Positions 1 to 64,000 of a stretch of 64,000 bases of DNA are shown piece after piece (position 1 is the stretch's first letter; the number at the start of each line of letters is the position of its first letter). A program made the position numbers and the translations under genes. Source of the stretch: Eledone cirrhosa (Eukaryota). Under the pieces are notes generated by a model. That model saw only the letters and a program-made list of their open reading frames with translations, ran no database searches and was not told the origin of the DNA. The stretch covers positions 59,086,001 to 59,150,000 of the forward strand of contig OZ024740.1 of assembly GCA_964016885.1 (NCBI GenBank). The letters are read 5' to 3'.

Positions 1-3000
1 ACTCCCGCTGTTATAGTCTAAACCTGACTAGCTATGGAGCTGGACTCCTGCTGTTATAGTCTAAACCTGACTATCTATGGAGCTGGACTCCCACTGTTAT
101 AGTCTAAACCTGACCATCTATGGAGCTGGACTCCCACTGTTATAGTCTAAACCTGACTAGCTATGGAGCTGGATTCCCGCTGTTATAGTCCAAACCTGAC
201 CACCTATGGAGCTGGACTCCCGCTGTTATAGTCTAAACCTGACTATCTATGGAGCTGGACTCCCACTGTTATAGTCAAAACCTGACCACCTATGGAGCTG
301 GACTCCCGCTGTTATAGTCTAAACCTGACCACCTATGGAGCTGGACTCCCGCTGTTATAGTCTAAACCTGACCACCTGTGGAGCTGGACTCCCGCTGTTA
401 TAGTCTAAACCTGACCATCTATGGAGCTGGACTCCCGCTGTTATAGTCTAAACCTGACCACCTATGGAGCTGGACTCCCACTGTTATAGTCTAAACCTGA
501 CTAGCTATGGAGCTGGACTCCCACTGTTATAGTCTAAACCTGACTATCTATGGAGCTGGACTCCCGCTGTTATAGTCTAAACCTGACTAGCTATGGAGCT
601 GGACTCCCACTGTTATAGTCTAAACCTGACTATCTGTGGAGCTGGACTCCCACTGTTATAGTCTAAACCTGACCACCTATGGAGCTGGACTCCCGCTGTT
701 ATAGTCTAAACCTGACCACCTATGGAGCTGGACTCCCACTGTTATAGTCTAAACCTGACTATCTATGGAGCTGGACTCCCGCTGTTATAGTCTAAACCTG
801 ACTAGCTATGGAGCTGGATTCCCGCTGTTATAGTCCAAACCTGACTATCTATGGAGCTGGACTCCCGCTGTTATAGTCCAAACCTGACTAGCTATGGAGC
901 TGGACTCCCACTGTTATAGTCTAAACCTGACTAGCTATGGAGCTGGACTCCTGCTGTTATAGTCTAAACCTGACTATCTATGGAGCTGGACTCCCACTGT
1001 TATAGTCTAAACCTGACCATCTATGGAGCTGGACTCCCACTGTTATAGTCTAAACCTGACTAGCTATGGAGCTGGATTCCCGCTGTTATAGTCCAAACCT
1101 GACCACCTATGGAGCTGGACTCCTGCTGTTATAGTCTAAACCTGACTATCTATGGAGCTGGACTCCCACTGTTATAGTCTAAACCTGACCACCTATGGAG
1201 CTGGACTCCCGCTGTTATAGTCTAAACCTGACCACCTATGGAGCTGGACTCCCGCTGTTATAGTCTAAACCTGACCACCTATGGAGCTGGACTCCCACTG
1301 TTATAGTCTAAACCTGACTATCTATGGAGCTGGACTCCCGCTGTTGTAGTCTAAACCTGACTAGCTATGGAGCTGGATTCCCGCTGTTATAGTCCAAACC
1401 TGACTATCTATGGAGCTGGACTCCCGCTGTTATAGTCCAAACCTGACTATCTATGGAGCTGGACTCCCACTGTTATAGTCTAAACCTGACTAGCTATGGA
1501 GCTGGACTCCCACTGTTATAGTCTAAACCTGACTATCTATGGAGATGGACTCCACTGTTATAGTCTAAACCTGACTATCTATGGAGCTGGACTCCCACTG
1601 TTATAGTCTAAACCTGACTAGCTATGGAGCTGGACTCCCACTGTTATAGTCTAAACCTGACTAGCTATGGAGCTGGACTCCCACTGTTATAGTCTAAACC
1701 TGACTATCTATGGAGCTGGACTCCCACTGTTATAGTCTAAACCTGACTATCTATGGAGCTGGACTCCTGCTGTTATAGTCTAAACCTGACTATCTATGGA
1801 GCTGGACTCCCGCTGTTATAGTCTAAACCTGACTATCTATGGAGCTGGACTCCCACTGTTATAGTCTAAACCTGACTAGCTATGGAGCTGGACTCCCACT
1901 GTTATAGTCTAAACCTGACTATCTATGGAGTCGGACTCCCGCTGTTATAGTCTAAACCTGACTATCTGTGGAGCTGGACTCCCGCTGTTATAGTCTAAAC
2001 CTGACTATCTATGGAGCTGGACTCCCGCTGTTATAGTCTAAACCTGACTATCTATGGAGCTGGACTTCTGCTGTTATAGTCTAAACCTGACTAGCAATGG
2101 AGCTGGACTCCCGCTGTTATAGTCCAAACCTGAATATCTATGGAGCTGGACTCCCGCTGTTATAGTCTAAACCTGACCACCTATGGAGCTGGACTCCCGC
2201 TGTTATAGTCCAAACCTGACTAGCTATGGAGCTGGACTCCCACTGTTATAGTCTAAACCTGACTAGCTATGGAGCTGGACTCCCACTGTTATAGTCTAAA
2301 CCTGACTAGCTATGGAGCTGGACTCCCGCTGTTATAGTCTAAACCTGACTATCTATGGAGCTGGACTCCCACTGTTATAGTCTAAACCTGACTAGCTATG
2401 GAGCTGGACTCCCACTGTTATAGTCTAAACCTGACTAGCTATGGAGCTGGACTCCCGCTGTTATAGTCCAAAACTGACTATCTATGGAGCTGGACTCCCA
2501 CTGTTATAGTCTAAACCTGACTATCTATGGAGCTGGACTTCTCTGTTATAGTCTAAACCTGACTAGCTATGGAGCTGGACTCCCGCTGTTATAGTCTAAA
2601 CCTGACTATCTATGGAGCTGGACTTCTCTGTTATAGTCTAAACCTGACTATCTATGGAGCTGGACTTCTCTGTTATAGTCTAAACCTGACTAGCTATGGA
2701 GCTGGACTCCCGCTGTTATAGTCTAAACCTGACTAGCTATGGAGCTGGACTCCCGCTGTTATAGTCTAATCCTGACTATCTGTGGAGCTGGACTCCCGCT
2801 GTTATAGTCTAAACCTGACTAGCTATGGAGCTGGACTCCTGCTGTTATAGTCTAAATCTGACTAGCTATGGAGCTGGACTCCCGCTGTTATAGTCTAAAC
2901 CTGACTATCTATGGAGCTGGACTCCCGCTGTTATAGTCTAAACCTGACTAGCTATGGAGCTGGACTCCTGCTGTTATAGTCTAAACCTGACTATCTATGG

Positions 3001-6000
3001 AGCTGGACTCCCACTGTTATAGTCTAAACCTGACCATCTATGGAGCTGGACTCCCACTGTTATAGTCTAAACCTGACTAGCTATGGAGCTGGATTCCCGC
3101 TGTTATAGTCCAAACCTGACCACCTATGGAGCTGGACTCCCGCTGTTATAGTCTAAACCTGACTATCTATGGAGCTGGACTCCCACTGTTATAGTCAAAA
3201 CCTGACCACCTATGGAGCTGGACTCCCGCTGTTATAGTCTAAACCTGACCACCTATGGAGCTGGACTCCCGCTGTTATAGTCTAAACCTGACCACCTGTG
3301 GAGCTGGACTCCCGCTGTTATAGTCTAAACCTGACCATCTATGGAGCTGGACTCCCGCTGTTATAGTCTAAACCTGACCACCTATGGAGCTGGACTCCCA
3401 CTGTTATAGTCTAAACCTGACTAGCTATGGAGCTGGACTCCCACTGTTATAGTCTAAACCTGACTATCTATGGAGCTGGACTCCCGCTGTTATAGTCTAA
3501 ACCTGACTAGCTATGGAGCTGGACTCCCACTGTTATAGTCTAAACCTGACTATCTGTGGAGCTGGACTCCCACTGTTATAGTCTAAACCTGACCACCTAT
3601 GGAGCTGGACTCCCGCTGTTATAGTCTAAACCTGACCACCTATGGAGCTGGACTCCCACTGTTATAGTCTAAACCTGACTATCTATGGAGCTGGACTCCC
3701 GCTGTTATAGTCTAAACCTGACTAGCTATGGAGCTGGATTCCCGCTGTTATAGTCCAAACCTGACTATCTATGGAGCTGGACTCCCGCTGTTATAGTCCA
3801 AACCTGACTAGCTATGGAGCTGGACTCCCACTGTTATAGTCTAAACCTGACTAGCTATGGAGCTGGACTCCTGCTGTTATAGTCTAAACCTGACTATCTA
3901 TGGAGCTGGACTCCCACTGTTATAGTCTAAACCTGACCATCTATGGAGCTGGACTCCCACTGTTATAGTCTAAACCTGACTAGCTATGGAGCTGGATTCC
4001 CGCTGTTATAGTCCAAACCTGACCACCTATGGAGCTGGACTCCCGCTGTTATAGTCTAAACCTGACTATCTATGGAGCTGGACTCCCACTGTTATAGTCT
4101 AAACCTGACCACCTATGGAGCTGGACTCCCGCTGTTATAGTCTAAACCTGACCACCTATGGAGCTGGACTCCCGCTGTTATAGTCTAAACCTGACCACCT
4201 ATGGAGCTGGACTCCCACTGTTATAGTCTAAACCTGACTATCTATGGAGCTGGACTCCCGCTGTTGTAGTCTAAACCTGACTAGCTATGGAGCTGGATTC
4301 CCGCTGTTATAGTCCAAACCTGACTATCTATGGAGCTGGACTCCCGCTGTTATAGTCCAAACCTGACTATCTATGGAGCTGGACTCCCACTGTTATAGTC
4401 TAAACCTGACTAGCTATGGAGCTGGACTCCCACTGTTATAGTCTAAACCTGACTATCTATGGAGATGGACTCCACTGTTATAGTCTAAACCTGACTATCT
4501 ATGGAGCTGGACTCCCACTGTTATAGTCTAAACCTGACTAGCTATGGAGCTGGACTCCCGCTGTTATAGTCTAAACCTGACTATCTATGGAGCTGGACTC
4601 CCACTGTTATAGTCTAAACCTGACTAGCTATGGAGCTGGACTCCCGCTGTTATAGTCTAAACCTGACTAGCTATGGAGCTGGACTCCCGCTGTTATAGTC
4701 TAAACCTGACTATCTATGGAGCTGGACTCCCACTGTTATAGTCTAAACCTGACTATCTATGGAGCTGGACTCCCACTGTTATAGTCTAAACCTGACTATC
4801 TATGGAGCTGGACTCCTGCTGTTATAGTCTAAACCTGACTATCTATGGAGCTGGACTCCCGCTGTTATAGTCTAAACCTGACTATCTATGGAGCTGGACT
4901 CCCACTGTTATAGTCTAAACCTGACTAGCTATGGAGCTGGACTCCCACTGTTATAGTCTAAACCTGACTATCTATGGAGTCGGACTCCCGCTGTTATAGT
5001 CTAAACCTGACTATCTGTGGAGCTGGACTCCCGCTGTTATAGTCTAAACCTGACTATCTATGGAGCTGGACTCCCGCTGTTATAGTCTAAACCTGACTAT
5101 CTATGGAGCTGGACTTCTGCTGTTATAGTCTAAACCTGACTAGCAATGGAGCTGGACTCCCGCTGTTATAGTCCAAACCTGAATATCTATGGAGCTGGAC
5201 TCCCGCTGTTATAGTCTAAACCTGACCACCTATGGAGCTGGACTCCCGCTGTTATAGTCCAAACCTGACTAGCTATGGAGCTGGACTCCCACTGTTATAG
5301 TCTAAACCTGACTAGCTATGGAGCTGGACTCCCACTGTTATAGTCTAAACCTGACTAGCTATGGAGCTGGACTCCCGCTGTTATAGTCTAAACCTGACTA
5401 TCTATGGAGCTGGACTCCCACTGTTATAGTCTAAACCTGACTAGCTATGGAGCTGGACTCCCACTGTTATAGTCTAAACCTGACTAGCTATGGAGCTGGA
5501 CTCCCGCTGTTATAGTCCAAAACTGACTATCTTTGGAGCTGGACTCCCACTGTTATAGTCTAAACCTGACTATCTATGGAGCTGGACTTCTCTGTTATAG
5601 TCTAAACCTGACTAGCTATGGAGCTGGACTCCCGCTGTTATAGTCTAAACCTGACTATCTATGGAGCTGGACTTCTCTGTTATAGTCTAAACCTGACTAT
5701 CTATGGAGCTGGACTTCTCTGTTATAGTCTAAACCTGACTAGCTATGGAGCTGGACTCCCGCTGTTATAGTCTAAACCTGACTAGCTATGGAGCTGGACT
5801 CCCGCTGTTATAGTCTAAACCTGACTATCTGTGGAGCTGGACTCCCGCTGTTATAGTCTAAACCTGACTAGCTATGGAGCTGGACTCCTGCTGTTATAGT
5901 CTAAATCTGACTAGCTATGGAGCTGGACTCCCGCTGTTATAGTCTAAACCTGACTATCTATGGAGCTGGACTCCCGCTGTTATAGTCTAAACCTGACTAG

Positions 6001-9000
6001 CTATGGAGCTGGACTCCTGCTGTTATAGTCTAAACCTGACTATCTATGGAGCTGGACTCCCACTGTTATAGTCTAAACCTGACCATCTATGGAGCTGGAC
6101 TCCCACTGTTATAGTCTAAACCTGACTAGCTATGGAGCTGGATTCCCGCTGTTATAGTCCAAACCTGACCACCTATGGAGCTGGACTCCCGCTGTTATAG
6201 TCTAAACCTGACTATCTATGGAGCTGGACTCCCACTGTTATAGTCAAAACCTGACCACCTATGGAGCTGGACTCCCGCTGTTATAGTCTAAACCTGACCA
6301 CCTATGGAGCTGGACTCCCGCTGTTATAGTCTAAACCTGACCACCTGTGGAGCTGGACTCCCGCTGTTATAGTCTAAACCTGACCATCTATGGAGCTGGA
6401 CTCCCGCTGTTATAGTCTAAACCTGACCACCTATGGAGCTGGACTCCCACTGTTATAGTCTAAACCTGACTAGCTATGGAGCTGGACTCCCACTGTTATA
6501 GTCTAAACCTGACTATCTATGGAGCTGGACTCCCGCGGTTATAGTCTAAACCTGACTAGCTATGGAGCTGGACTCCCACTGTTATAGTCTAAACCTGACT
6601 ATCTGTGAAGCTGGACTCCCACTGTTATAGTCTAAACCTGACCACCTATGGAGCTGGACTCCCGCTGTTATAGTCTAAACCTGACCACCTATGGAGCTGG
6701 ACTCCCACTGTTATAGTCTAAACCTGACTATCTATGGAGCTGGACTCCCACTGTTATAGTCTAAACCTGACTATCTATGGAGCTGGACTCCCACTGTTAT
6801 AGTCTAAACCTGACTATCTATGGAGCTGGACTCCTGCTGTTATAGTCTAAACCTGACTATCTATGGAGCTGGACTCCCGCTGTTATAGTCTAAACCTGAC
6901 TATCTGTGGAGCTGGACTCCCACTGTTATAGTCTAAACCTGACCACCTATGGAGCTGGACTCCCGCTGTTATAGTCTAAACCTGACCACCTATGGAGCTG
7001 GACTCCCACTGTTATAGTCTAAACCTGACTATCTATGGAGCTGGACTCCCACTGTTATAGTCTAAACCTGACTATCTATGGAGCTGGACTCCCGCTGTTA
7101 TAGTCTAAACCTGACTAGCTATGGAGCTGGATTCCCGCTGTTATAGTCCAAACCTGACTATCTATGGAGCTGGACTCCCGCTGTTATAGTCCAAACCTGA
7201 CTAGCTATGGAGCTGGACTCCCACTGTTATAGTCTAAACCTGACTAGCTATGGAGCTGGACTCCCGCTGTTATAGTCTAAACCTGACTATCTATGGAGCT
7301 GGACTCCCACTGTTATAGTCTAAACCTGACTAGCTATGGAGCTGGACTCCCGCTGTTATAGTCTAAACCTGACTAGCTATGGAGCTGGACTCCCGCTGTT
7401 ATAGTCTAAACCTGACCATCTATGGAGCTGGACTCCCACTGTTATAGTCTAAACCTGACCATCTATGGAGCTGGACTCCCACTGTTATAGTCTAAACCTG
7501 ACTATCTATGGAGCTGGACTCCCACTGTTATAGTCTAAACCTGACTATCTATGGAGCTGGACTCCTGCTGTTATAGTCTAAACCTGACTATCTATGGAGC
7601 TGGACTCCCGCTGTTATAGTCTAAACCTGACTATCTATGGAGCTGGACTCCCACTGTTATAGTCTAAACCTGACTATCTATGGAGCTGGACTCCTGCTGT
7701 TATAGTCTAAACCTGACTTTCTATGGAGCTGGACTCCCGCTGTTATAGTCTAAACCTGACTAGCTGTGGAGCTGGACTCCCACTGTTATAGTCTAAACCT
7801 GACTATCTGTGGAGCTGGACTCCCGCTGTTATAGTCTAAACCTGACTATCTATGGAGCTGGACTCCCGCTGTTATAGTCTAAACCTGACTAGCTGTGGAG
7901 CTGGACTCCCGCTGTTATAGTCTAAACCTGACTATCTGTGGAGCTGGACTCCCGCTGTTATAGTCTAAACCTGACTATCTATGGAGCTGGACTCCCGCTG
8001 TTATAGTCTAAACCTGACTAGCTGTGGAGCTGGACTCCCGCTGTTATAGTCCAAACCTGACTATCTGTGGAGCTGGACTCCCGCTGTTATAGTCTAAACC
8101 TGACTAGCTATGGAGCTGGACTCCCGCTGTTATAGTCTAAACCTGACCATCTATGGATTTGGACTCCCGCTGTTATAGTCTAAACCTGACTAGCTATGGA
8201 GCTGGACTCCCACTGGTATAGTCTAAACCTGACTAGCTATGGAGCTGGACTCCCGCTGTTATAGTCTAAACCTATCTATCTATGGAGCTGGACTCCCACT
8301 GTTATAGTCTAAACCTGACTAGCTATGGAGCTGGACTCCCACTGTTATAGTCTAAACCTGACTAGCTATGGAGCTGGACTCCCACTGTTATAGTCTAAAC
8401 CTGACCACCTATGGAGCTGGACTCCCACTGTTATAGTCTAAACCTGACTATCTATGGAGCTGGACTCCCGCTGTTATAGTCTAAACCTGACTAGCTATGG
8501 AGCTGGACTCCCACTGGTATAGTCTAAACCTGACCACCTATGGAGCTGGACTCCCGCTGTTATAGTCTAAACCTGACCACCTATGGAGCTGGACTCCCGC
8601 TGTTATAGTCTAAACCTGACCACCTGTGGAGCTGGACTCCCGCTGTTATAGTCTAAACCTGACCATCTATGGAGCTGGACTCCCGCTGTTATAGTCTAAA
8701 CCTGACCACCTATGGAGCTGGACTCCCACTGTTATAGTCTAAACCTGACTAGCTATGGAGATGGACTCCCACTGTTATAGTCTAAACCTGACTATCTATG
8801 GAGCTGGACTCCCGCTGTTATAGTCTAAACCTAACTAGCTATGGAGCTGGACTCCCACTGTTATAGTCTAAACCTGACTATCTGTGGAGCTGGACTCCCA
8901 CTGTTATAGTCTAAACCTGACCACCTATGGAGCTGGACTCCCACTGTTATAGTCTAAACCTGACTATCTATGGAGCTGGACTCCCGCTGTTATAGTCTAA

Positions 9001-11428
9001 ACCTGACTAGCTATGGAGCTGGATTCCCGCTGTTATAGTCCAAACCTGACTATCTATGGAGCTGGACTCCTGCTGTTATAGTCTAAACCTGACTATCTAT
9101 GGAGCTGGACTCCCGCTGTTATAGTCTAAACCTGACTATCTATGGAGCTGGACTCCCACTGTTATAGTCTAAACCTGACTATCTATGGAGCTGGACTCCT
9201 GCTGTTATAGTCTAAACCTGACTATCTATGGAGCTGGACTCCCGCTGTTATAGTCTAAACCTGACTAGCTGTGGAGCTGGACTCCCACTGTTATAGTCTA
9301 AACCTGACTATCTGTGGAGCTGGACTCCCGCTGTTATAGTCTAAACCTGACTATCTATGGAGCTGGACTCCCGCTGTTATAGTCTAAACCTGACTAGCTG
9401 TGGAGCTGGACTCCCGCTGTTATAGTCTAAACCTGACTATCTGTGGAGCTGGACTCCCGCTGTTATAGTCTAAACCTGACTATCTATGGAGCTGGACTCC
9501 CGCTGTTATAGTCTAAACCTGACTAGCTGTGGAGCTGGACTCCCGCTGTTATAGTCCAAACCTGACTATCTGTGGAGCTGGACTCCCGCTGTTATAGTCT
9601 AAACCTGACTAGCTATGGAGCTGGACTCCCGCTGTTATAGTCTAAACCTGACCATCTATGGAGCTGGACTCCCGCTGTTATAGTCTAAACCTGACTAGCT
9701 ATGGAGCTGGACTCCCACTGGTATAGTCTAAACCTGACTAGCTATGGAGCTGGACTCCCGCTGTTATAGTCTAAACCTGACTATCTATGGAGCTGGACTC
9801 CCACTGTTATAGTCTAAACCTGACTAGCTATGGAGCTGGACTCCCACTGTTATAGTCTAAACCTGACTAGCTATGGAGCTGGACTCCCACTGTTATAGTC
9901 TAAACCTGACCACCTATGGAGCTGGACTCCCACTGTTATAGTCTAAACCTGACTATCTATGGAGCTGGACTCCCACTGTTATAGTCTAAACCTGACTATC
10001 TATGGAGCTGGACTCCCACTGTTATAGTCCAAACCTGACTAGCTATGGAGCTGGACTCCCGCTGTTATAGTCTAAACCTGACTATCTGTGGAGCTGGACT
10101 CCCGCTGTTATAGTCTAAACCTGACTAGCTATGGAGCTGGACTCCCGCTGTTATAGTCTAAACCTGACTATCTATGGAGCTGGACTCCCGCTGTTATAGT
10201 CCAAACCTGACTATCTATGGAGCTGGACTCCCGCTGTTATAGTCTAAACCTGACTATCTATGGAGCTGGACTCCCACTGTTATAGTCCAAACCTGACTAG
10301 CTATGGAGCTGGACTCCCGCTGTTATAGTCCAAACCTGACTAGCTATGGAGCTGGACTCCCACTGTTATAGTCTAAACCTGACTATCTATGGAGCTGGAC
10401 TTCTCTGTTATAGTCTAAACCTGACTAGCTATGGAGCTGGACTCCCGCTGTTATAGTCTAAACCTGACTATCTATGGAGCTGGACTCCCACTGTTATAGT
10501 CTAAACCTGACTAGCTGTGGAGCTGGACTCCCGCTGTTATAGTCTAAACCTGACTATCTATGGAGCTGGACTCCTGCTGTTATAGTCTAAACCTGACTAG
10601 CTATGGAGCTGGACTCCCGCTGTTATAGTCTAAACCTGACTAGCTATGGAGCTGGACTCCCGCTGTTATAGTCTAAACCTGACTATCTATGGAGCTGGAC
10701 TCCCACTGTTATAGTCTAAACCTGACTAGCTGTGGAGCTGGACTCCCACTGTTATAGTCCAAACCTGACTATCTATGGAGCTGGACTCCCACTGTTATAG
10801 TCTAAACCTGACTAGCTATGGAGCTGGACTCCCGCTGTTATAGTCTAAACCTGACTATCTATGGAGCTGGACTCCCACTGTTATAGTCTAAACCTGACTA
10901 GCTGTGGAGCTGGACTCCCACTGTTATAGTCCAAACCTGACTATCTATGGAGCTGGACTCCCACTGTTATAGTCTAAACCTGACTATCTATGGAGCTGGA
11001 CTCCCACTGTTATAGTCTAAACCTGACTATCTATGGAGCTGGACTCCCGCTGTTATAGTCCAAACCTGACTATCTATGGAGCTGGACTCCCGCTGTTATA
11101 GTCTAAACCTGACCATCTGTGGAGCTGGACTCCCGCTGTTATAGTCTAAACCTGACTATCTATGGAGCTGGACTCCCGCTGTTATAGTCTAAACCTGACT
11201 ATCTGTGGAGCTGGACTCCCGCTGTTATAGTCCAAACCTGACTATCTGTGGAGCTGGACTCCCGCTGTTATAGTCTAAACCTGACTATCTATGGAGCTGG
11301 ACTCCCGCTGTTATAGTCTAAACCTGACTATCTATGGAGCTGGACTCCCGCTGTTATAGTCCAAACCTGACTATCTGTGGAGCTGGACTCCCACTGTTAT
11401 AGTCCAAACCTGACTAGCTATGGAGCTG
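1..11428. repeat. 43-bp tandem satellite, about 265 copies, open at the left window edge
   Basis: Unit ACTCCC(G/A)CTGTTATAGTC(T/C)AAACCTGAC(TAG/TAT/CAC/CAT)CT(A/G)TGGAGCTGG recurs every 43 bp; ends abruptly at ...TGGAGCTG|AGCTCC. Confidence 0.99.
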
Positions 11429-57370: not shown

Positions 57371-58044
57371 CTTTCTGGAGAATAGAGGAAAGGTGTTTCC
57401 TCAAAAACCAGTATGACTCTAAAAACCGGTTTGTCTGTGCGTTTACATACAGAATAGCTGGATACTCACAGTAAAGTAACCAGTGAAAGACTTGGTACAT
57501 CTACATATGTATACGTGTGTGTATTCATATGCATACTAGTATTTCAGTATGCATATGTAGATGTACATTTTTAACTTAATTGTTTAAGCGTCAGTCATAC
57601 AAAAGTCAGTTACAAACGAAACGAAATTTAATTTCGTTTCGTTATTTGTTTTTATCGTCTCCGTTGAACCGGTACGTACTCACACTCTATGCAAATTAGT
57701 CTGCCCACTACTAATTTTCATAGAAAAAGCATATAACGATATGTGCTTTTACGATTCTCCAGAAAGGCCGGTAGATAGGTAAATATTGCTGATGAGTTGT
57801 AACAACAACGAAACTAGTCCAATGTTCCTTGTCTGGCTTTCTGGTGAATAGAGGAAAGGTGTTTCCTCGAAAACCAGTATGACTCTAAAAACCGGTTTGT
57901 CTGTGTGTTTACATACAGAATAGCTGGATACTCACAGTAAAGTAACCAGTGAAAGACTTGGTACATCTACATATGTATACGTGTGTGTATTCATATGCAT
58001 ACTAGTATTTCAGTATGCATATGTAGATGTACATTTTTAACTTA

Positions 58045-58049
<5 letters not shown>
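57369..58049 (+). mobile_element. 466-bp unit in 1.46 tandem copies with a hammerhead ribozyme (retrozyme-like family 2)
   Basis: 57369-57583 is repeated at 57835-58049; many hairpins; (TA)n on both flanks. Confidence 0.85.
57782..57826 (+). ncRNA. Minimal type I hammerhead ribozyme
   Basis: AAUAUUG-CUGAUGA-GUUGU AACA ACAAC-GAAA CUAG UC-CAAUGUU; all core nucleotides intact; predicted GUC cleavage after 57819. Confidence 0.9.
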
Positions 58050-58109
<60 letters not shown>

Positions 58110-58110
58110 C

Positions 58111-58141
<31 letters not shown>

Positions 58142-58143
58142 AC

Positions 58144-58184
<41 letters not shown>

Positions 58185-58194
58185 ATACAAACAT

Positions 58195-58534
58195 TAGATG
58201 GGTTGTCCTATTGTGGGCAATTCCAGGTCGGGTGACCTTGCCTGCTCATACGGGAACTGATTTTGGCTTGATTCCTACAACTGGATGCCCTTCCTCACAC
58301 CAACCTCATTTACAGTGAGTGCTGGGTGCTTTTTGCCGTGGCACCTCCACGACCACTTTACAGTGGAATGATAGGGACCCAGTCCCTATCATCTCTTTTC
58401 TACAGCTGAGTAAACTGGAGCAATGTGAAATAAAGTGTCTTGCTCAAGGAAACAACACATCACCCGGTCTGAGAATTGAACTCACAATCTTTCGATTGCA
58501 AGGTCAATGTTCTAACCACTAAGCCATATGCCTC
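58195..58534 (-). mobile_element. SINE family B variant with alternative RTE-type tail
   Basis: Head and core as 56771; 3' part equals 61644-61790. Confidence 0.88.
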
Positions 58535-58630
<96 letters not shown>

Positions 58631-59141
58631 CGTATACATATGAACATGCATTTTTATGCACATCTGTGAACGGATTTACATACATATATACACACACCTA
58701 ACTGTATTTTCTTGATGGATTTTTATGTATTTCATTGGTCTATTTAAAATCTGTTCCCAAACAGACCTGTAATTTTGAATTGTTGTTATTATCAATAAAT
58801 TTGCATCATTATTTCTGAAGACAGCATATATATGTGAAGGTATGTATATTCTCTTTGATAGTTTGTATAATTTTGTACATAGATCTTTTGAATATGCATA
58901 CCAATTCTAACACATATATGTCCTAGAAACGATCGTAAAATAATGAACTTTTTTTGTTTAATATAAGGAATTGTTTCTTTGTTTATTCATTATTTTTTTA
59001 ATATTTTATCTTGACTCTGTATTCCGTTTATCTTTCACCGAAAGTGATTTTTGACTGCATCTCTTCTTTTCATGATATCCGGATTACATTGAGTTCTTCA
59101 TACGGATTGGACACTACCGTAAACTTTTGGTAGCTTTATCT

Positions 59142-59215
<74 letters not shown>

Positions 59216-59219
<4 letters not shown>

Positions 59220-61498
59220 CTTTCACTAAAATACAAATTTAGGAAAGCCCTTCAAGATGTATATGACGAAAAAGAAGACGATTTAGAGACGTATGACATA
59301 GATAATAACTGGAAGTTCTTACGTGACAACTTGCTGCAGGCTACTGATGAAACCTGTGGTTGGAGCAGAGCTCCAACCAGACAGAGAGTGACCTGGTGGT
59401 GGAACAGCACAGTAGATAAGGCTATTAGAGACAAAAGACTAGCATGGAAGGCTTGGAAAAAGGGTGGGAGTAGGGAAGAATATACAGCCACTAAGAGAGA
59501 AGCTAGACGTCAGGTGTACTTAGCACGCAGGGTGGCAGAGAGTAAGAGGTTTGCCAATGTTCTGCGACGGGAAGATCAGAGGCGTGCGGTGTTCCACGTT
59601 TCAAGGCAGTGTGTCAATACAAATCAGGATGTTGTTGGAGATAAATGTGTCCGGGATGATGCCGGTGTACTTAGTGTCACGAATGACCAGAAAAAGGAGG
59701 CCTGGAAATGTCATTATGAGAGACTGATGAATGTGGAGAACGAATGGGAGAGAGAGAAATTACCCTTGGTAGATCCGACAGAGGGACCAGCTATTGAGAT
59801 TGACGAATATAGGGTCCAAGAGGCGATTAGGGAAATGAAAAATGGTAAGGCGGCCGGACCATTGGGAATAGTTGCTGAGATGCTGAAGGCATCAGGGGAC
59901 GTAGGCACTAAACTGGTTGCATGCATCATCAATCAGGCTATATATGGTGGTGTCATACCCAAAGACTGGTGCAGCAGTATTCTCATAAATTGCTACAAAG
60001 GTAAAGGGGATGCTTTGGAGAGGAGCAATTATAGGGGTATAAAACTGATAGATCAGGTTATGAAAGTGGCAGAAAGGATTTTAGCACAACTAGTTAGAGA
60101 AAGGGTCAAACTAGATGAGATGCAGTTTGGTTTTGTGCCTGGGAAGAGTACAACAGATGCCCTCTTCTTGGTGAGACAAATGCAAGAGAGGTTCTTAGAG
60201 AAGAATAAGCCACTATACTTAGCCTTTGTTGACCTAGAGAAGGCTTTGATAGGGTACCCCGATCTGTCATCTGGTGGTCCCTAAGGAAGCTAGGTGTTGA
60301 GGAATGGCTTGTGAGGACAGTGCAAACTTTGTACAGAGGTACTCTCAGTAAAGTCAGGGTAGGAATGGAGTTTAGTGAGGAATTCCAGATACAAGTAGGA
60401 GTACATCAGGGTTTGGTCCTCAGCCCGCTCTTGTTCATTATAGTCCTCCAAGCCATAACAGAGGAGTTTAAGACTGGCTGTCCATGGGAACTTCTCTATG
60501 CTGACGATCTGGCTCTTATAGCAGAATCAGTAGAGGATCTAGAGAATAAATTCCAGCTATGGAAACAGCAGTTGGAAGCAAGAGGACTGAGAGTAAATCT
60601 AGCTAAGACAAAAGTGTTGATGAGTAGAAAAGAGGACAAAACCCTGATTCCGTCAGGGAAATGGCCATGTTCGATATGCAGAAAAGGAACTGGCATAAAT
60701 TCTATAAAATGCACACAATGCAGGTCCTGGGTACACAAGAGATGTAGCGGGATAGCAGGCAAACTAACAGGTAGGGAGAAATATGTATGCAGTAGATGTA
60801 CAGGGAAATTAGACAGTAGAAGTCGCACTGATAGACACATTTTTCAAATGCGAGAGGGCGCTATAGAAGTGGTGGATAGCTTCCGGTATCTAGGAGATCA
60901 GATTAGCATTGGAGGATGGTGTTCCGAGGCCATAGTATCTAGAATAAGGACGGGTTGGAAGAAGTTTAGGGAGCTGCTTCCTCTGTTGATGAAGAAGGGT
61001 TACTCCCTGCGTACGAAAGGCCGGTTGTATGATGCCTGTGTGAGGAGCGCGATGCTGCATGGTAGTGAGACATGGGCAGCAACCGCAGAGGATATGCGAC
61101 GGCTGGAGAGAAATGAGGCAAGCATGCTCCGTTGGATGTGCAGTGTAAATGTGCGTGAACGACCCAGCATAAAAGTGTTGAGAGAGAAACTGTGTCTGAG
61201 AGGGATAGAATGTAGTGTACGGGAGAGGAGACTGAGGTGGTATGGACATGTGATGCGCATGGAGGATGACCGATGGGTGAAGAAGTGCCAGGAAATGCCA
61301 GTTGAAGGAAGACATGGTAGAGGTAGACCACGAAAAACATGGGCGGAGGTGGTGAGAACAGACCTCAGATCATTGAAGGTCACGGTGGAGATGACGAGGG
61401 ACCGTGACGAGTGGAGAGATGCTGTGCTGAATAAGACCCGTCTCACCCTTGCAAGCAGGGAAAAGCGGACGTAAAATGATGATGATGATGATGATGAT
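59216..61498 (+). mobile_element. Young 5'-truncated RTE LINE; ORF open except for one frameshift near 60248
   Basis: TWWWN, NYRGIKL, QFGFVPGKSTTDA, FVDLEKA|FD, GVHQG, LYADD, PHD-like insert, FRYLG, RLRWYGHV, GRGRPRKTW; (GAT)n tail. Confidence 0.97.
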
Positions 61499-61534
61499 AT
61501 ATATAACATATACATATATATATATATATATAAC

Positions 61535-61635
<101 letters not shown>

Positions 61636-61643
61636 ATACAAAC

Positions 61644-62336
61644 ATTAGATGGGTTGTCCTATTGTGGGCAATGCCAGGTCGGGTGACCTTGTCCTGCTCA
61701 TACGGGAACTGATTTTGGCTTGATTCCTACAACTGGATGCCCTTCCTCACACCAACCTCATTTATAGTGAGTGCTGGGTGCTTTTTACCGTGGCACCTAC
61801 ACGGCCACTTTACAGAGGGAGGAGATGGGGGCATATTGTCTATATGCTTCAGCTTCAGCTTGTACTCGTGGGAAGTCGGGTCTTCTGTATTACTGTGTGA
61901 CGCTAGAGGTGTAATACTATTGGAGCATGCCAGCTTCGTTTTTTCTAATCTACGCAAGTCTTCTACACACAGCGCCCAGGTGTGACTACCATGTAACATT
62001 GCTGTTTGTATGCATGCATCATACAGTCTGCCTTTCATCTTGAGGAAAAAACCTTTTGCAGCTAGCAGTGGCAGTAACAACCTGAACTTCATCCATCCCG
62101 TTCCTACCCTGGTTACTGTACTTTCTGAACACCCACCTCCACTGCTAATTTGGTCACTTAGGTAGCAGAAGCTGTCTACTGTTTCTACAGAGTTTGGTAA
62201 TGCTTGCTTCCTGTGGCTGTTTGCTGCTTACTGTCCAGGGGAAGCTGCTACATGTAAAGCCTACATTCCTAACTAAGCTTCTTAAGATCCCACTACATCT
62301 CTTGTGTACCCATAGATTGAATTTGGGGCAAAGAAT

Positions 62337-62340
<4 letters not shown>
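61644..62340 (-). mobile_element. Internally deleted RTE 3' fragment
   Basis: KMKGRLYDACIQTAMLHGS; 5' end abuts (TA)n. Confidence 0.85.
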
Positions 62341-62412
<72 letters not shown>

Positions 62413-62580
62413 GTGTGTGTGTGTGTCGGATGGTAGCTAAGATGCTTCCATAGGCGGTATGCCGGTTGAGCATTCTATGCTCTTACAGAGCAGAGTATGA
62501 TAAAATGAAACAATTGTAACACACAATAAATTGAGTTCAGATGCATCACTGATTTTACGATTTATATTATATATATATAT

Positions 62581-62729
62581 TTGGTGTTAGGAAGGGCATC
62601 CAGCCATAGAAAACCTGCCAGACAGTCCTATACGAGCGAGACGACCAATCTTGCCTTAAGTGGGACAATTCCCGTCTAAACCCATGCTAGTGAGGAAGAT
62701 AGACGTTAAACGTTGATGATGATGATGAT
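62581..62729 (+). mobile_element. RTE/SINE 3' tail fragment
   Basis: GTTAGGAAGGGCATCCAGC...GACGTTAAACG(TGA)n. Confidence 0.8.
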
Positions 62730-62774
62730 ATATATATATATATATATAGCTCTGCCGTCGGGGTTAAACATTTT

Positions 62775-62846
<72 letters not shown>

Positions 62847-62920
62847 AAAATGTTTAACCCCGACGACAGAGCTCAAGCCGTTTCGACAGCTATTTCTGGA
62901 CTATATATATGATATATATA

Positions 62921-63070
62921 TCATCATCACCGTTTTATGTCTGTTCTTCCACGCTAGCATGGGTTAGATGGGTTGTCCTGTTTTGTGCAGTGTCCGGTCA
63001 GCTGACCTTGTCTTGCTCATACGGGAACTGATTCTGGCTGGATTTCTACAGCTGGATGCACTTCCTATCA
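62921..63070 (-). mobile_element. RTE/SINE 3' tail fragment
   Basis: Reverse complement of 14110-14260. Confidence 0.8.
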
Positions 63071-63199
63071 TTCAAAACGGCTTGAGCTCTGGAAAAATTT
63101 TCCTATATATATATATATATCATATATACATCTTATATATATCATATATATATCATTTATATATATTATATGTATATATCATATATATATCATATACAT

Positions 63200-63235
<36 letters not shown>

Positions 63236-63355
63236 TATAGACATAGAATATTCGAAAATATTCTGTATGTTTATAATAAACATTTTGAAGACCTAATCGC
63301 TATAGAATAGAATACGTCACGTATTACAATTAGATTCTCGATAAAAGCAAGGGAA

Positions 63356-63398
63356 GTAATCTACGCGTTTCATTCTCGTAAGAAATCATCAGGACTAC
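63356..63398 (-). ncRNA. Minimal type I hammerhead ribozyme, copy 1
   Basis: Minus: GUAGUC-CUGAUGA-U UUCU UACG AGAA U-GAAA CGCG UA-GAUUAC; predicted GUA cleavage between 63362 and 63361. Confidence 0.88.
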
Positions 63399-63665
63399 AT
63401 ATCCAGTGCTTTTATCGAGAATGACACAGCTAGAGACTTATAGAATACTTAGCTGTGTACAGGAACTGGTTTGAAAGAGCGGTTGCCGGTCCGGCAGAAA
63501 TTAGAAATTGGAATAAATGCTCTGAAATAGCGATATATATGTGAATATAGACATAGAATATTCGAAAATATTCTGTATGTTTATAATAAACATTTTGAAG
63601 ACCTAATCGCTATAGAATAGAATACGTCACGTATTACAATTAGATTCTCGATAAAAGCAAGGGAA

Positions 63666-63708
63666 GTAATCTACGCGTTTCATTCTCGTAAGAAATCATC
63701 AGGACTAC
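63666..63708 (-). ncRNA. Minimal type I hammerhead ribozyme, copy 2
   Basis: Identical to copy 1, +310 bp; a third partial copy starts at 63976. Confidence 0.88.
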
Positions 63709-64000
63709 ATATCCAGTGCTTTTATCGAGAATGACACAGCTAGAGACTTATAGAATACTTAGCTGTGTACAGGAACTGGTTTGAAAGAGCGGTTGCCGGT
63801 CCGGCAGAAATTAGAAATTGGAATAAATGCTCTGAAATAGCGATATATATGTGAATATAGACATAGAATATTCGAAAATATTCTGTATGTTTATAATAAA
63901 CATTTTGAAGACCTAATCGCTATAGAATAGAATACGTCACGTATTACAATTAGATTCTCGATAAAAGCAAGGGAAGTAATCTACGCGTTTCATTCTCGTA

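Follow-up and report, generated by a model that had tools for sequence, protein, structure and literature searches.

Animal non-LTR retrozymes, described in coral, mussel and axolotl, are tandem arrays of non-coding units of 150-450 bp with low GC and one type I hammerhead ribozyme in each. Their circular RNAs have been shown, whereas the conversion of the circle into tandem cDNA by reverse transcription and the role of a helper, in particular a Penelope-like element (PLE), have been proposed only (PMC4209133; PMC7229834). A hallmark of PLEs is an inverted, 5'-truncated copy together with a tail of 30-40 bp at one end (PMC8557442; PMC3846280), and the origin of their tandem and inverted structures and of their tails is described as undefined in PMC8557442. 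The anole PLE (Poseidon, PAc) nicks and extends both strands, its tail being bounded by two internal start sites, and in vitro the start site showed no strand bias (PMC11167929). The same class of helper as the one proposed below was concluded for retrozymes in a 2026 preprint (10.64898/2026.07.22.740005) from co-occurrence and pLTR homology. The retrozyme class, its link to PLEs and the idea of a passage from circle to tandem cDNA are already in print as proposals.

We describe here a 310-bp family found at the end of a window of 64,000 nucleotides (the whole stretch of DNA analysed) of Eledone cirrhosa. As far as can be judged from DNA, the family has all the features of a non-LTR retrozyme that can be tested and, in the way it is inserted, those of a non-autonomous PLE. 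It shares with the metazoan retrozymes described in PMC7229834 the organization outlined above, and its one-pair palindromic helix III and the U.U at the base of helix II resemble those of the axolotl HHR_Amex1 and HHR_Amex2, respectively; it differs from them in that insertion ends and per-locus haplotypes are resolved and in that it is known from DNA alone. As in the (TA)n-targeting EN+ PLEs (PMC8557442, PMC3846280), a truncated copy lies inverted, only one end bears a tail and the target is a microsatellite or AT-rich, and, as in PAc, the hammerhead lies upstream of two internal start sites (PMC11167929). In contrast to PLEs, the family is a 310-bp element without an ORF in which both arms are multi-unit concatemers and, unlike in PAc, the arms always use different start sites and the short start can pair with the target. 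Non-autonomous elements of Chlamys such as MRC1 are likewise PLE-dependent and make multicopy head-to-tail insertions, but their clade lacks canonical hammerheads and their host is an alga (PMC8557442). Whereas the preprint considered local amplification of arrays, the evidence here is the junction structure, and the arrays appear to have been written at insertion. The word "inverted" is absent from the main text of PMC7229834, as are "tail" and "junction" from the text of the preprint, and neither this family nor a retrozyme with inverted twin arrays is described in the literature covered, parts of PMC9977147, PMC8490949 and PMC7761336 included; repeat libraries and the supplements of PMC7229834 and of the preprint lie outside that scope and may bear on novelty.

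The features of the array are collected in Table 1. The perfect 310-bp tandem units pointed out in an earlier note on this DNA were confirmed by offset comparison, since 63232-64000 presented zero mismatches at an offset of 310 and about 450 at offsets of 309 and 311. The array continues beyond the window edge up to G000:C1:59150191 and is adjoined by (TA)n at both sides; the GC content of 62001-64000 is 0.34, and no protein was found in the retrozyme arrays. We express the unit phase as the window position minus 63231, the predicted hammerhead cut being phase 131/130. The window locus has no tail end, and the tail arms of other loci stop at phase 276. Elsewhere in the window, a 43-bp tandem satellite (266 copies, 94% matches) occupies 1-11428 and runs past the window start, and the 3' part of a LINE at 60500-61497 depicts an RT end and a PHD-like match and finishes in (ATG)n and (TA)n. 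A short inverted pair (62748-62903 and 63073-63104) flanks a (TA)n tract, resembles a small repeat at locus L130 (L130:5630-5790) and accounts for the microRNA-like Rfam matches; it may represent the ends of another PLE-type small element.

Table 1. Retrozyme features at the end of the window (window positions; cut sites and monomer are predicted).
Feature	Position	Strand	Remarks
(TA)n microsatellite target, left flank	63104..63231	unstranded	
Retrozyme array, single-armed copy	63232..64000	RNA sense minus	2.48 units in window, 3.10 (960 bp) in genome
Unit 1, 310 bp, reference unit	63232..63541	minus	
"Short" outer end, RNA 3' side	63232..63240	minus	fixed phase 1/302, common to all short arms
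Internal "tail" segment, phases 276-310	63507..63541	minus	contains AUAUAUAU tract, 63533-63540
Type I hammerhead 1	63356..63398	minus	motif in sequence, selection, covariation
Hammerhead 1, stem I	GUAGUC 63398-63393 with GAUUAC 63361-63356	minus	
Hammerhead 1, core	CUGAUGA 63392-63386; GAAA 63371-63368	minus	
Hammerhead 1, U.U	63385/63372	minus	
Hammerhead 1, stem II UUCU-UACG-AGAA	63384-63381 with 63376-63373	minus	
Hammerhead 1, palindromic ACGCGU and GUA^ cut	between 63362 and 63361	minus	cut predicted
Type I hammerhead 2, identical	63666..63708	minus	predicted cut between 63672 and 63671
Hammerhead 3, partial at window edge	63976..64000	minus	whole in genome
16-bp stem lengthening helix I	63334-63349 with 63407-63422	minus	fold, selection, covariation
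Predicted 310-nt monomer between two cuts	63362..63671	minus	inferred from cut sites; fold computed

On the minus strand, the earlier note had read a type I hammerhead with its stems, U.U, core and GUA site, and the sequence bears this out; the 16-bp extension of helix I is exact, and each of the further hairpins ascribed to the unit appeared in at least one computed fold. Two details have to be amended. The ribozyme, with a helix I of 6 bp, a helix II of 4 bp and a tiny palindromic helix III, has the canonical metazoan shape instead of the minimal PLE one, and the UACG loop II, correct for the units of the window, does not hold for the family, where it is a minority form whose first base differs in 87 of 89 loci. 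Neither in 58000-64000 (E<=1) nor in 63300-63760 (E<=10) did an Rfam search recognize a hammerhead, the matches obtained being TA-repeat hairpins, so that the hammerhead call rests on motif plus covariation. Two successive predicted cuts would release a 310-nt monomer that we infer to be circularised, and in its computed cleaved form stem I and the 16-bp stem clamp the two ends together. This monomer folds more stably than chance (z = -3.9) and so does the plus strand (z = -4.5). Since both strands fold well, folding energy was rejected as a test of the strand, which is indicated instead by the variant pattern. Helix III is reduced in the monomer to one pair and the palindromic tetraloop, a shape reported as dimer-dependent (PMC4209133; PMC7229834).

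The genome-wide copy number is in keeping with a dispersed family. A 20-nt hammerhead pattern had at least 13,308 matches in the 3.0-Gb assembly (a minimum, since the pattern misses N7 variants) and an exact pattern of (TA)5 plus the tail end had 992, while the controls gave 0 in both cases; copies of the family were present on many contigs. Across 248 kb of arms, single-unit variants amounted to about 5.5e-4 per base, and the insertions are therefore young. The family comprises young insertions numbering about a thousand or more, mostly back-to-back twin arrays. The proposal of a young retrozyme family is supported in so far as the family is dispersed, young and non-coding and has a selected type I hammerhead. 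In four sequencing runs whose kind is not on record, unit contigs looped on themselves; as tandem DNA would also do so, we did not count this in favour of an RNA. Runs X4, X5 and X6, likewise of unrecorded kind, carry organism labels different from that of run X1 and gave one self-looping 340-letter unit contig each, with one common haplotype, for which contamination, a close species and transfer are not distinguishable.

To describe the insertions, we parsed the first 100 of the 992 tail junctions listed, all of them on contig C1. Ninety-one of these tail-anchored loci were two-armed and 4 single-armed, 4 ran beyond the parsed stretch and 1 lay at a gap; that is, an inverted second array was present in 91 of the 95 that could be resolved, the copy in the window being single-armed. 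In the twin arrays, the RNA 5' ends face each other at the centre and the RNA 3' ends point outward, with median arm lengths of 4.2 and 3.0 units. The anchored arm ends at phase 276 and has a (TA)5 flank by selection, and the second arm ended at phase 302-1 (short site), beside the AT tract of the unit, in all 76 loci where its end was visible; at this tract, 27 ends match through, 45 are shifted by two bases and 4 differ. The outer ends are fixed, at phase 276 (tail) and phase 1/310 (short), about 34 nt apart. Loci chosen without regard to their ends presented the same layout: among 20 BLAST matches all 17 two-armed loci combined tail and short, and so did the 4 two-armed loci among 6 absent from the junction list. 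These 21 loci had one tail end (phase 271-282) and one short end each, and the remaining 5, the window's included, were single short arms (L032 belongs both to the BLAST set and to the 100 tail-anchored loci). The tail arms of L062, L083, L173 and L215 exceed 13-18 units and extend beyond the parsed stretch, the longest with periodic variants.

The inner ends behaved differently from the fixed outer ones. They were scattered over the unit with an enrichment at two hairpins (chi-square p = 0.002) and did not pile up at the predicted cut site (4/182 versus 5.9 expected). Of 91 inner joints, 50 displayed 1-6 nt of microhomology, 13 longer matches (fold-backs), 9 were blunt and 19 carried inserts, joint positions being ambiguous within hairpins. 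The short-side flank was purely A/T in 69 of 76 loci. Target duplications were found in 3 of 76, as compared to 3.1 by shuffling, in a test that is blind in (TA)n; at L230, a non-TA site, both ends bear a 12-bp direct repeat. Judging from these junctions, the layout of a tail plus an inverted copy is the signature of a PLE and agrees with the published PLE descriptions in every point; invisible in the single-armed copy of the window, it indicates the kind of helper and limits the mechanisms that can be considered.

The genome also holds two related families. Family B is an older sister retrozyme with units of about 313-320 bp (L092:2430-2880 and L137-L166) and 199 pattern matches, double counts included. 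It has in common with the 310-bp family the 3' region, tail, short end and inversion, with the hammerhead rewritten, and one of its subfamilies carries U3-A8 in the hammerhead core. Family C is a (TA)n-inserted inverted element (L130:7000-7210, L132:5130-5330 and L126:180-312). In core and stem II its hammerhead comes close to that of the 310-bp family, but its 3' end is different and its tail longer (about 60 nt); this composition suggests module swapping among PLE parasites.

The analysis of variants covered 146 arms from 89 loci, each arm being 1.9 units or longer, and we considered as fixed those variants present in at least 80% of the units of an arm, and as sporadic all others. We excluded end slips, variants lying up to 45 nt from an inner end and 14 events of a misparsed L051 unit. 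Among the distinct fixed substitutions, none fell in the 16 positions of core and helix III, 8 were in stems and 21 elsewhere. The last group includes loop II, a change of the U.U to A-U, and N7, the one position of the core at which variants were fixed. All 8 fixed stem changes retain pairing on the minus strand, whereas on the plus strand 7 of them would disrupt it. Sporadic substitutions, on the other hand, comprised 6 in the core, 23 that break a stem, 2 that keep it and 63 elsewhere, and the difference was significant for stem changes (Fisher p = 3e-6) as well as for damaging changes versus the rest (p = 2e-4). The hammerhead is thus under selection, which acts on the minus strand. Covariation was found as well: in an alignment of the window unit with 10 copies of family B, both sides were altered in 15 of 28 pairs (0/500 shuffles, a control that ignores relatedness), and pairing reached 88% versus 31-44% in slid controls. 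Stem I was 70.8% paired in this alignment, where it is partly out of register. U3-A8 replaced C3-G8 in 5 of the 10 family B rows; in the anole PLE ribozyme, a double change at the 3-8 pair restores activity partly (PMC11167929).

The 89 loci hold 32 fixed haplotypes. The two arms nevertheless carried the same one in 55 of 57 loci, a number that averaged 5.1 and never exceeded 16 in 20,000 permutations. Thirteen variants were fixed in one locus only, of which 11 fill all units of both arms, up to 18 units, one was not evaluable and one was confined to one arm. Considering that a new mutation arises in one unit, its presence in as many as 18 units of both arms calls for a bottleneck of one monomer followed by repeated copying, and rolling round a circle would give both in one step. 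These private variants lend indirect support to a monomer-sized template. A cleaved linear monomer was rejected as that template, because the lack of an inner-end pile-up at the cut site indicates that cleaved linear ends are not its 5' limit. There were also mosaic loci. In L080, a variant common to both arms was in the first unit of each only; L072 and L173 switched haplotype within one arm; in L182 a variant was restricted to one arm; L034, L036 and L046 of the BLAST set contained odd units; and in L062, L063 and L083 a variant recurred at intervals. Such loci go beyond what one monomer circle alone can give and call for switches of template, for templates of several units or for DNA turnover after insertion.

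We consider it likely that this non-LTR retrozyme is put into (TA)n by a PLE enzyme that rolls round one 310-nt circular RNA on both nicked strands. The twin arrays, the fixed outer and scattered inner ends, the haplotype proper to each locus and the selection on the hammerhead are features of the sequence itself; the RNA, cleavage, ligation and enzyme steps would be as follows. Arrays would be transcribed and the hammerheads would cut as dimers, the 310-nt monomer being then ligated into a circle. The PLE protein would nick both strands of (TA)n, and one target 3' end would pair with the AUAUAUAU tract of the RNA (short start) while the other would find 2-3 nt of homology about 34 nt further downstream and prime there (tail start). 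Each primed end would yield a multi-unit cDNA, and the two cDNAs would be joined where they stop, via microhomology, fold-back or short patches; loss of one arm would leave a single-armed copy like that in the window.

The main alternative is that the same PLE-driven element is copied from linear multimers that were read from a homogeneous source array and left uncut, with one or two RNAs per insertion and circles, if formed, as a by-product or an occasional bottleneck only. We regard this as unlikely, despite several observations that suit it. Unprocessed RNA was the main in vitro substrate of the anole PLE, whose insertion in vitro did not require hammerhead cleavage (PMC11167929). Moreover, matching arms are also expected from two RNAs of one homogeneous array, the missing cut-site ends suit uncut RNA and circles equally, and both the L080 variant at the same unit index in the two arms and the periodic variants in arrays of at least 15 units are in line with a linear multimer. 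However, such a template predicts that new heritable variants appear first as single-unit changes in register across both arms, whereas, of 42 sporadic events at units that the other arm also covers, 4 were shared with it, and these came from 2 variants (L080 and L072); the 11 private variants that fill both arms tell against it too, and the selection on the catalytic core is left without explanation.

According to another explanation, discussed for retrozymes in the 2026 preprint, a PLE-derived monomer is inserted first and multiplies afterwards in place, by unequal crossover or slippage, to form a satellite. The periodic variants of L062, L063 and L083 do suggest block duplication in long arrays, but the multi-unit nature of both inverted arms, with their common private variants, a sporadic divergence of only 5.5e-4 per base and outer ends fixed in every locus make it very improbable. 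To an ordinary LINE with L1-type twin priming, or to a fold-back assembly artefact, we give hardly any credence, even though LINE remnants lie nearby (60500-61475) and certain joints are in hairpins. The outer ends are both internal, fixed and different, and there is no poly(A); the arms are unequal in length, the flanks are unique and the older family B repeats the layout. Contiguous twin priming of the L1 type needs inner ends near the second priming site, and it was not supported, as 8 of 91 tail-arm inner ends were there versus 7.6 expected.

Returning to the copying of a circle by a PLE, the helper is likely a PLE reverse transcriptase-endonuclease. Long frames with RT and GIY-YIG exist in the genome (938 aa at L122, for example), and in some of these elements the nuclease is C-terminal, after a CxxC motif that, following the description in PMC8557442, fits the Neptune or Nematis clades. 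None of 46 GIY-YIG loci (10,597 candidates, 150 scored) was an autonomous PLE with the 3' region of the 310-bp element, and blastn, a 3'-region profile and tblastn over these 46 plus 30 family B loci disclosed no pLTR; what these searches found next to PLEs was only insertions of families B and C. The 100 tail-anchored loci do not represent an autonomous PLE either: within the parsed stretch they held no RT plus GIY-YIG ORF, and none led into non-unit coding sequence. The L124 PLE family has a type I hammerhead of its own, with U.U and palindromic helix III, in its 3' repeat, and the ends of the young PLE families named next recur in the flanks of retrozyme arrays (L052 and L061, for instance), so that both use common target microsatellites. 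Young PLE families about 95-98% alike and ending in (TA)n, several with inverted copies, were observed at L122, L123, L126, L129, L130 and L134, at L121 (long frame) and at L124, L125, L128, L131 and L136.

The fixed variants provide a further lead. Seven of the 8 fixed stem changes are A>G in the RNA, and 7 of 22 stem A:U sites showed a fixed A>G as compared to C>U in 0 of 13 C:G sites (p = 0.03). ADAR enzymes prefer a 5' U neighbour. Such a U precedes the A at phases 111, 165 and 182, three sites where the A>G was found repeatedly, on 3-4 haplotype backgrounds. As a lead only, this pattern might reflect A-to-I edits on the stems of the circle that were written into the genome; the milder cost of A-U to G-U changes together with template switching could produce the same pattern. 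A bolder reading, which we put forward tentatively and hold to be possible rather than probable, is that each two-armed locus represents one RNA circle copied twice at once, from the tail site and from the AU tract, with A-to-I edits written into the genome. If true, it would explain the tail and the inverted structure of PLEs and would show that, in the germline of an animal, a retrozyme circle is reverse-transcribed by rolling-circle copying.

The insertions, nearly identical and about a thousand or more in number, have ends that are resolved and variants private to a locus, and constitute a natural experiment on the copying of circles and on PLE tails. The genomic evidence for the proposed mechanism is unusually direct, and its interest lies in this mechanistic read-out more than in the element itself. 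The 310-nt unit of the family, whose start sites are mapped, can serve as substrate in a direct in vitro test, and two arms, a tail versus a short end and one haplotype per locus can be checked in any long-read animal genome with retrozymes.
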